Below, piece after piece: positions 2,621-2,908 of a stretch of DNA of 13,936 bases. Every line of letters begins with the position of its first letter. The stretch's first letter is position 1. The DNA is from a virus. The notes beneath the pieces are model-generated. The model had not been told where the DNA came from. It made no database searches and saw nothing but the letters and a program-made list of their open reading frames with translations. Both the position numbers and the translations under genes were made by a program. Location of the stretch: UHGV virus genome UHGV-0300571. One strand, written 5' to 3'.

Positions 2621-2908
2621 GTTCTTTTTTCGCCCAATTATTTTCAAAAAAAATCCCGTGCACAAAAATTTGAGGAGGCGGTCGGTGTCCGGCAGGGACG
2701 GTTTTGTCCTGAAAACCTCCCCCACCCCCTCTGACGGCCTCACCAGCGATTGCGAAAACATTCCATGACCTCGCGGTCACGGTCGGTTAATCGCTTCGCT
2801 GTGGTGCGTTCTGTGCGCCCTGTCCTGTTGGCTTTGTGCCCTGTCTCCTGTGTCTTCCATAAGTCACGCTGCCTTATCAGTCCACGTATCAGCCTGTTTT
2901 GCTCCTGT
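2621..2908. other. Candidate packaging site (cos-like) between HNH and TerS
   Basis: 288-bp non-coding spacer sitting between the HNH endonuclease and the terminase genes, the position where HK97-type cos sites are found. Contains two GCCCTGTC repeats 21 bp apart (2817-2824, 2838-2845), an imperfect palindrome CAGGGAC-N6-GTCCTG (2693-2711), and a C-rich tract (2717-2730). Confidence 0.35.

Follow-up and report, generated by a model that had tools for sequence, protein, structure and literature searches.

The locus studied here raises the question of where a satellite that carries its own terminase genes cuts its DNA for packaging, and which sequences mark the cut. The window, i.e. the whole stretch of DNA analysed, comprises 13,936 nucleotides of the virus genome UHGV-0300571. 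An earlier note on this sequence had proposed a cos site in the 288 bp between the genes of an HNH endonuclease and the small terminase TerS, and had pointed to a pair of direct repeats, an imperfect palindrome and a C-rich tract as possible terminase-binding and nicking elements. The kind of site and the interval were well chosen, although the wrong elements had been named. Our analysis indicates that the element very probably has an HK97-style cos site between the HNH gene and terS.

The window as a whole is a capsid-forming PICI (cf-PICI) of E. coli, with all relevant genes on the minus strand. According to the searchable text of the He et al. 2025 preprint, cf-PICIs are islands of 10-18 kb with an integrase and a replication module, with capsid, protease, portal, connector, HNH, TerS and TerL genes of their own, and without tail or lysis genes. 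Megablast showed that 47 complete E. coli genomes carry >80% of the window, and the RefSeq names at these loci comprise an integrase, a RepA-family helicase, major capsid, portal and head-tail connector proteins, HNH, TerS and TerL. ORFs, Pfam matches and the RefSeq names at near-identical E. coli loci gave the same picture for the window (integrase, RepA-type helicase, capsid, portal, connector, HNH, TerS and TerL), in agreement with the definition in the Methods of He et al. No tail-family match was found in the eight ORFs scanned with Pfam or in the RefSeq names of the best matches. Hence, gene set and gene order match those that define cf-PICIs. Between the integrase and the replication genes, we also noted an ORF of 394 aa (10727-11911, minus strand) of odd, Cys/Ser-rich composition, for which only a stretch of 67 aa was matched in the related contig IMGVR_UViG_3300022664_000095. 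It is possibly spurious and could mask smaller regulatory genes.

The genes for HNH, TerS and TerL follow one another in that order on the minus strand, as had been noticed before, and Pfam assigned them to PF01844, PF05119 and PF03354/PF20441, respectively. The HNH endonuclease (2909-3349; PF01844, E=1.3e-9; phrog_144, E=1e-44) is a homologue of HK97 gp74, with 36% identity in blastp (E=4e-16). The large terminase (619-2280; PF03354 and PF20441) resembles HK97 gp2, with 28% identity over 506 aa (blastp, E=4e-49), and the portal gene was recognized by Pfam at 3641-5074. The small terminase has 118 aa and occupies 2264-2620, within a longer ORF at 2264-2761 (PF05119, Terminase_4/P27, E=4e-23); its RefSeq CDS of 357 nt starts at the ATG at 2620. 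We rejected a longer TerS of 165 aa starting at 2761, because the relatives are non-coding upstream of 2620, the RefSeq start is at 2620, and the virion left end described below would fall within the extension. A sequence search returned no TerS relative with a solved structure.

The DNA between the HNH gene and terS, which is identical in E. coli TUM1881 and 86% identical to the corresponding interval of the prototype cf-PICI EcCIEDL933, had been taken for a non-coding spacer of 288 bp (2621-2908). This is not the case. A conserved small protein gene, 61 aa as annotated, lies at 2740-2925 on the minus strand (RefSeq CDS WP_001251184.1; phrog_3173, E=2e-29). It overlaps the stop of the HNH gene and has a conserved start, MTEQ, at 2916. 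The reading frame is open in 76 distinct protein variants from related loci, which keep an M(T/N)E... start and a C-terminal R(D/E)RE..E(C/A)FRNR motif, with a divergent middle part. Conservation was lower at third codon positions (0.39) than at first and second positions (0.52 and 0.56). The product had no Pfam match and is labelled 'unknown function' in PHROGs; a packaging role of this protein is possible. Nearly all of the enterobacterial cf-PICIs that we examined have a gene of the phrog_3173 family (50-61 aa) between HNH and cos; in the phage collection, the family occurred in only three records, all of them derived from cf-PICIs. The local annotation is thereby corrected from an empty spacer to a small conserved gene, and the true intergenic DNA between this gene and terS comprises the 119 bp at 2621-2739.

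For an unbiased footprint of this region, HNH-to-TerS regions of IMG/VR loci were retrieved through the TerS protein only, and the 54 unique sequences were aligned and reduced to 12 lineages at <93% identity. Three non-coding blocks were invariant or near-invariant across the 12 lineages; the small ORF and the region of the ribosome-binding site (RBS) diverged. In a larger set of 50 lineages, the conservation score of block A was 0.89, versus 0.48-0.56 for the third codon positions of HNH and TerS; the phrog_3173 ORF scored 0.49 overall and the RBS-proximal 16 nt, the least conserved part, scored 0.33. In this larger set, the scores of blocks B and C are inflated, as part of the sequences had been gathered or anchored by means of these very blocks. 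Where non-coding DNA outscores the adjoining genes in conservation, a site that acts in cis is indicated, and here it lies at 2638-2728. The candidate cos is this core of ~90 bp, read on the minus strand, within the 119-bp gap between the phrog_3173 gene and terS, and we hold this assignment with good confidence.

The core has a fixed layout. Read on the minus strand, it begins with block A, GGGGTGGGGGAGGTTTTCAGGAC, which contains a G-run (2706-2728), is invariant or near-invariant in the 12 lineages and occurs once in the window. The C-rich tract of the earlier note (plus strand, ~2716-2729) proved to be the sole named element within conserved non-coding DNA. Block A is followed by an 18-nt linker, AAAACCGTCCCTGCCGGA (2688-2705), of variable sequence and fixed length, and by a conserved CAC (2685-2687); the double-stranded part of the right end is predicted to finish with base pair 2685. 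The C-rich 10-mer CGACCGCCTC (2675-2684) is the predicted cohesive end, placed by homology. Next comes CTCAAATTTTT (2664-2674), the 11 bp with which the packaged left end is predicted to begin. This block is the most conserved one: a single position deviates, in a single lineage of the unbiased 12. The semi-conserved GTGCACGGGA (2654-2663) leads to block C, TTTTTTTTGAAAATAA, i.e. T8-GAAAATAA (2638-2653; +22 to +37 from the left end), which is invariant in the 12 lineages and near-invariant in the Pasteurella cf-PICI Pmp8 as well. The last 17 nt before the ATG of TerS (2621-2637) are variable.

The distance from block A to CTCAAATTTTT was 31 nt in 77 of the 79 unique cos regions, and the core as a whole occurs once in the window. 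EcCIEDL933, with CGAACGCCTC as its predicted overhang, has the same layout, and so does Pmp8, whose TerS is only 60% identical. Block A belongs to the right end, which would be packaged last, and stops 21 nt short of the predicted bottom-strand nick; by this position, it is a candidate termination or nuclease-docking element of the cosQ type. The most likely TerS site, by analogy, is ~2638-2663 including the T8-GAAAATAA block. An inverted repeat at 2695-2705/2712-2722 was considered as a conserved hairpin and discarded, because one of its arms lies in the variable linker and the pairing is broken in one lineage (L055/L058). We further observed that CCTCAAATTTTTG (2664-2676, minus strand) and AATCAAATTTTTA in Pmp8 (1133-1147) resemble the core consensus of IHF, WATCAANNNNTTR. 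If this resemblance is real, a host protein that bends DNA could be acting directly at the left end.

Physical ends at this site were observed in related elements. Three assemblies in virion gene order, i.e. one metagenome contig and two particle-derived GenBank records, break here: they begin just upstream of terS and end after the HNH gene and the small ORF. The earlier proposal of a cos-type site between HNH and terS is supported by these three assemblies, which end in the homologous intergenic region, and by the HK97-like TerL and HNH proteins.

The metagenome contig, IMGVR_UViG_3300022664_000095, is a whole cf-PICI of 15,518 bp in virion permutation, with TerS at position 61, followed by TerL, integrase, capsid, portal, HNH and a small ORF at 15308-15457. 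This order is impossible for an integrated copy. The contig ends 21 nt past block A and starts with CTCAAATTTTTACGCACGG..., i.e. exactly at CTCAAATTTTT. In comparison with the usual 31 nt, exactly 10 nt are lacking between its end and its start, and the missing 10-mer reads CACCCGCCCC in near relatives. Terminal repeats were absent, and the cohesive 10-mer was found at neither end. End repair during library preparation removes 3' overhangs and fills in 5' overhangs, so that the cohesive sequence of a 5' cos would be duplicated at both ends (PMC5557969). The duplication expected of a lambda-type 5' cos was not seen in this contig, and a gap of exactly 10 nt is what a 3' overhang of 10 nt would leave after end repair. 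Hence, we read the hole as the signature of a 10-nt 3' cos, the polarity being deduced from end-repair logic and from homology with HK97. Among 87 metagenome contigs with the left-end pattern, no second one started at CTCAAATTTTT, and this contig is the sole one in IMG/VR with true ends at the site; two other apparent ends proved to lie inside longer contigs.

The same place could carry ends of another chemistry, i.e. a 5' overhang, an overhang of another length or blunt ends, if the 10-nt gap had arisen from library or assembly treatment. This would fit with base-level ends that come from one contig, for which the library type is not given, and with the isolate-genome contig IMGVR_UViG_2563366883_000010, which ends 22 nt past block A instead of 21, one base into the predicted overhang. 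The latter end could be a scaffold break from linear packaged satellite DNA in the culture, or a coincidence. However, filled-in 5' overhangs would duplicate the cohesive sequence rather than delete it, the length of 10 nt equals that of HK97, and the TerL and HNH nuclease pair is homologous to the pair of HK97. We therefore regard a different end chemistry as unlikely, and proceed with the 10-nt 3' cos.

The two particle-derived records break at the same site. The linear record of vB_KppS-Ant (LR881103.1) breaks off where block A ends and resumes immediately downstream of GAAAATAAA. It thus lacks 69 nt (21 nt, the 10-mer and 38 nt) that are centred on the predicted cut and present in 10 of 10 near-identical relatives. 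Its DNA was obtained from particles of K. pneumoniae DSM 30104, is >99% identical to the host, and was processed with Nextera XT and SPAdes (PMC8006926; BioProject PRJEB40148); the loss of 69 nt would fit the loss of terminal bases in tagmentation libraries. Judged from its gene content and host, vB_KppS-Ant is the cf-PICI KpCIDSM30104 in packaged form. The source paper describes LR881103.1 as a filamentous ssDNA prophage of a novel genus (PMC8006926), and the annotation of a 'tail length tape measure protein' at 2036-4333 in this record looks doubtful. In line with the cohesive ends predicted here, the searchable text of the He et al. 2025 preprint reports experiments in which packaged KpCIDSM30104 DNA concatemerises via cohesive cos ends.

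The second record, PQ569648.1 (Klebsiella phage P12620-1), has a cf-PICI in virion permutation as its last 15.9 kb, joined to unrelated DNA. The cf-PICI part opens with the second letter of the TerS ATG and breaks off within the final codons of the small ORF, so that 63 + 10 + 61 nt around the predicted cut are lacking, counted against the Ant-type sequence. This 106.5-kb 'complete genome' appears to be chimeric, with the cf-PICI at about 90,644-106,503, and the stretches that we fetched carried no annotated features. Fixed, non-permuted, unit-length ends of the HK97 type were thus found in the relatives, represented by the 15,518-bp contig and the two GenBank records.

Two further contigs attracted our attention. 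On the minus strand of IMGVR_UViG_2811995040_000002 (~11,440-11,480), TerS is cut off after ...AEKIMIK, and the sequence continues with the reverse complement of its own cos core, CCACCCGCTCCCTCAAATTTTT, and then with unrelated DNA. This looks like a rearrangement with its breakpoint at the cos core. Contig NODE_94 of ERZ1023299 is a unit-length metagenome cf-PICI contig of 15,632 bp with the cos internal, and its coverage of 454x suggests an actively replicating or induced satellite in the sample.

The conserved blocks might instead serve the expression of terS and terL, as a promoter, an anti-terminator, an RNA element or a translational operator, with the assembly breaks as artefacts of homopolymers. 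Indeed, the blocks lie just upstream of terS, they contain homopolymers of G and of T, which are apt to upset sequencing and assembly, and the predicted RNA fold of the intergenic region is mildly stable (z = -1.65). Yet, a scan of 2621-2739 detected no sigma-70-like promoter or terminator on the minus strand, Rfam gave no match in the intergenic region, and the RBS-proximal 16 nt are the part where conservation is lowest. Moreover, ~190 other contigs read straight through the region, and an assembly artefact would account neither for a virion-permuted contig of unit length from which 10 nt are cleanly missing nor for symmetric losses in two independent particle-derived records. We consider this explanation very improbable, and retain the reading of the conserved blocks as parts of a cos site.

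The elements named in the earlier note lie elsewhere. The two copies of GCCCTGTC (2817-2824 and 2838-2845, plus strand) exist and are 21 bp apart, as described, but they are codons of the phrog_3173 ORF and not a cos element. Both sit in a lineage-specific insertion of 21 nt, i.e. seven codons (ETGHKAN), which is present in two of the 12 lineages and absent from the other ten, in which the cos blocks otherwise do not vary. Among dinucleotide-shuffled versions of the 288 bp, 55% contained some 8-mer direct repeat and 18% contained one within 42 nt; at these frequencies, the repeat does not exceed chance. The spacing of 21 bp had been interpreted as two helical turns; a codon-phased indel of seven codons is the better reading. 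Similarly, the hairpin-like imperfect palindrome (2763-2782) consists of codons for the conserved DRDREVME motif, and other lineages do not keep its symmetry.

There is little to recommend the view that the GCCCTGTC repeats (2817-2845), the palindrome and the DNA at ~2760-2850 form the terminase-binding and nicking elements. The repeats and their spacing are real, and cosB of phage lambda holds repeated terminase-binding sites, which we counted in favour of this view. The repeats are nevertheless part of a conserved protein-coding ORF, they lie 130-170 bp upstream of the mapped ends on the side that is packaged last, and Pmp8 lacks the whole small ORF and retains the cos architecture. Both the predicted nicks and the likely TerS site are ~150 bp away from the repeats, in a stretch that the earlier note had not highlighted. 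We find it hardly conceivable that these elements make up the cos, and place the site in the intergenic core. Least probable of all is headful (pac) packaging that starts near the region without fixed ends, for which we found nothing specific beyond a P27-family TerS of a kind common to many phages, and against which stand the precise unit-length ends of the 15,518-bp contig without the redundancy and permutation of pac phages, the cohesive-end concatemerisation of KpCIDSM30104 DNA in the searchable part of the He et al. 2025 preprint, and an HK97-like TerL with an HNH partner.

Transferred from the relatives to the window, the cohesive end would be the 10-mer 5'-CGACCGCCTC-3' at 2684-2675 on the minus strand, with the right end at 2685 and the left end starting at 2674. 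The base-level ends for this transfer come from a single metagenomic contig, whose TerS is 86% identical and whose predicted overhang, read from its near relatives, deviates at three of the 10 positions. Once the element has been excised and replicated, a terminase of its own (a P27-family TerS and an HK97-like TerL), helped by HNH, would cut concatemers with a 10-nt stagger, by a nick at 2675|2674 on the minus strand and a nick at 2685|2684 on the plus strand. The products would have 3' overhangs 5'-CGACCGCCTC-3' on the minus (coding) strand. Packaging would start at the CTCAAATTTTT end and proceed through terS and terL to the next cos, so that the G-run block at 2706-2728 enters last. TerS most likely binds the T8-GAAAATAA block, ~22-37 bp inside the left end, comparable to +15 to +29 in HK97, and the G-run block would probably serve cleavage or termination. 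The part played by HNH is putative in the window; the searchable text of the cf-PICI preprints states that cf-PICI packaging depends on the elements' own HNH, TerS and TerL, and that this type needs HNH besides TerS-TerL.

Several implications follow if these predictions hold. The packaging specificity of the satellite plausibly resides in the cos core. A cf-PICI particle contains exclusively the DNA of the island, in a small capsid that the island itself encodes, and tails are then taken from several phages, so that identical islands can move between species. The ~90-bp core with its predicted nicks offers a defined fragment on which packaging specificity can be tested, a basis from which cosmid-like vectors could be built for cf-PICI particles, and a marker for satellite contigs in virion form in viromes. 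A more speculative reading, to which we assign a low probability, sees in the cf-PICI cos more than a copy of the HK97 site and regards the invariant G-run/TTTTCAGGAC block as a dedicated termination or HNH-docking element and phrog_3173 as a cos-binding accessory factor, which together with a P27-type TerS would make packaging exclusive to the satellite; the 65-nt frame described below would then be the footprint of one terminase-HNH holoenzyme that tolerates a swapped TerS family. The location itself holds limited surprise, as specialists would expect a cos between hnh and terS. The searchable text of the Alqurainy et al. 2022 and He et al. 2025 preprints gives neither location nor sequence of a cf-PICI cos, and we found no paper in the searchable literature that locates one.

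The closest known system is phage HK97, which has a 10-nt 3' overhang and an HNH protein, gp74, that stimulates cleavage (PMC11331095, PMC9410871). Its minimal TerS site spans +15 to +29, with an essential A/T tract at +24 to +29 (PMC11331095), and these positions agree with the numbering of the HK97 record. This record ends with ...GGGCAGGGGGGGGG-42 nt-CAAA and begins with GTTTGAATTTAACGCTAACCCGATTTTTTTAG..., with TerS at position 50. The cos of HK97 and the candidate cos of the window are both found at the genome ends, flanked by terS on one side and by a small ORF and the HNH gene on the other. The cohesive end of HK97 and the one predicted here are each 10 nt long, C-rich on the coding strand and contain CGCC. 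A run of nine G in HK97 occupies a distance equivalent to that of block A, its G-run ending 42 nt before the cut versus 44 nt before the predicted cut in the window, and the T-run starts at +24 in HK97 versus +22 in the window. The spacing from G-run to T-run is 65 nt in HK97, the window, EcCIEDL933 and Pmp8 alike. As shown above, TerL and HNH are homologous to gp2 and gp74.

These likenesses concern layout, however, rather than sequence. When the HK97 cos junction was aligned locally with positions 2618-2760 of the window, the score was 20, compared with 18.0 +/- 2.9 in shuffled sequences, of which 598 out of 2000 scored as well. Because this alignment was not significant, we claim a shared layout with the HK97 cos and not sequence homology. 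Furthermore, HK97 gp1 and the TerS of the window gave no match in blastp, and gp1 has no Pfam family, in contrast to the PF05119 (P27/Terminase_4) assignment of TerS. Since the two proteins are unrelated in sequence, the analogy between their sites is positional only. The small ORF upstream of the cos also differs, being phrog_10282 in HK97 and the unrelated phrog_3173 here, and the predicted cos of the window lies within the packaging operon of an integrated satellite of 14-16 kb. Our reading is that the same TerL and HNH cutting machinery operates on an equally sized frame and takes its recognition subunit from a different family. The site would be an HK97-type cos by mechanism, not by sequence.

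The cos of phage lambda, composed of cosQ, cosN and cosB with a 12-nt 5' overhang, follows the same three-part logic as the predicted cos of the window: an upstream element that is packaged last, a nick site and a downstream TerS site. The overhang predicted for the window differs from that of lambda in polarity and length, an HNH partner would be needed in the window, and the two have no sequence relationship; repeated R-type sites were not found downstream of the window cos. Among satellites, EcCIEDL933 and KpCIDSM30104 share with the window the order capsid, protease, portal, connectors, hnh, terS and terL. The window belongs to a different lineage and is set apart from them by a RepA-type helicase that replaces the primase, a single connector gene and the insertion of seven codons in the small ORF. 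P4, the cos SaPIs (SaPIbov5) and the E. coli PICIs that use Rpp likewise carry a cis-acting packaging signal. These satellites copy or mimic the cos of their helper and use or redirect the helper terminase, whereas the predicted cos of the window is paired with the element's own terminase and HNH, so that its packaging specificity would be self-contained.
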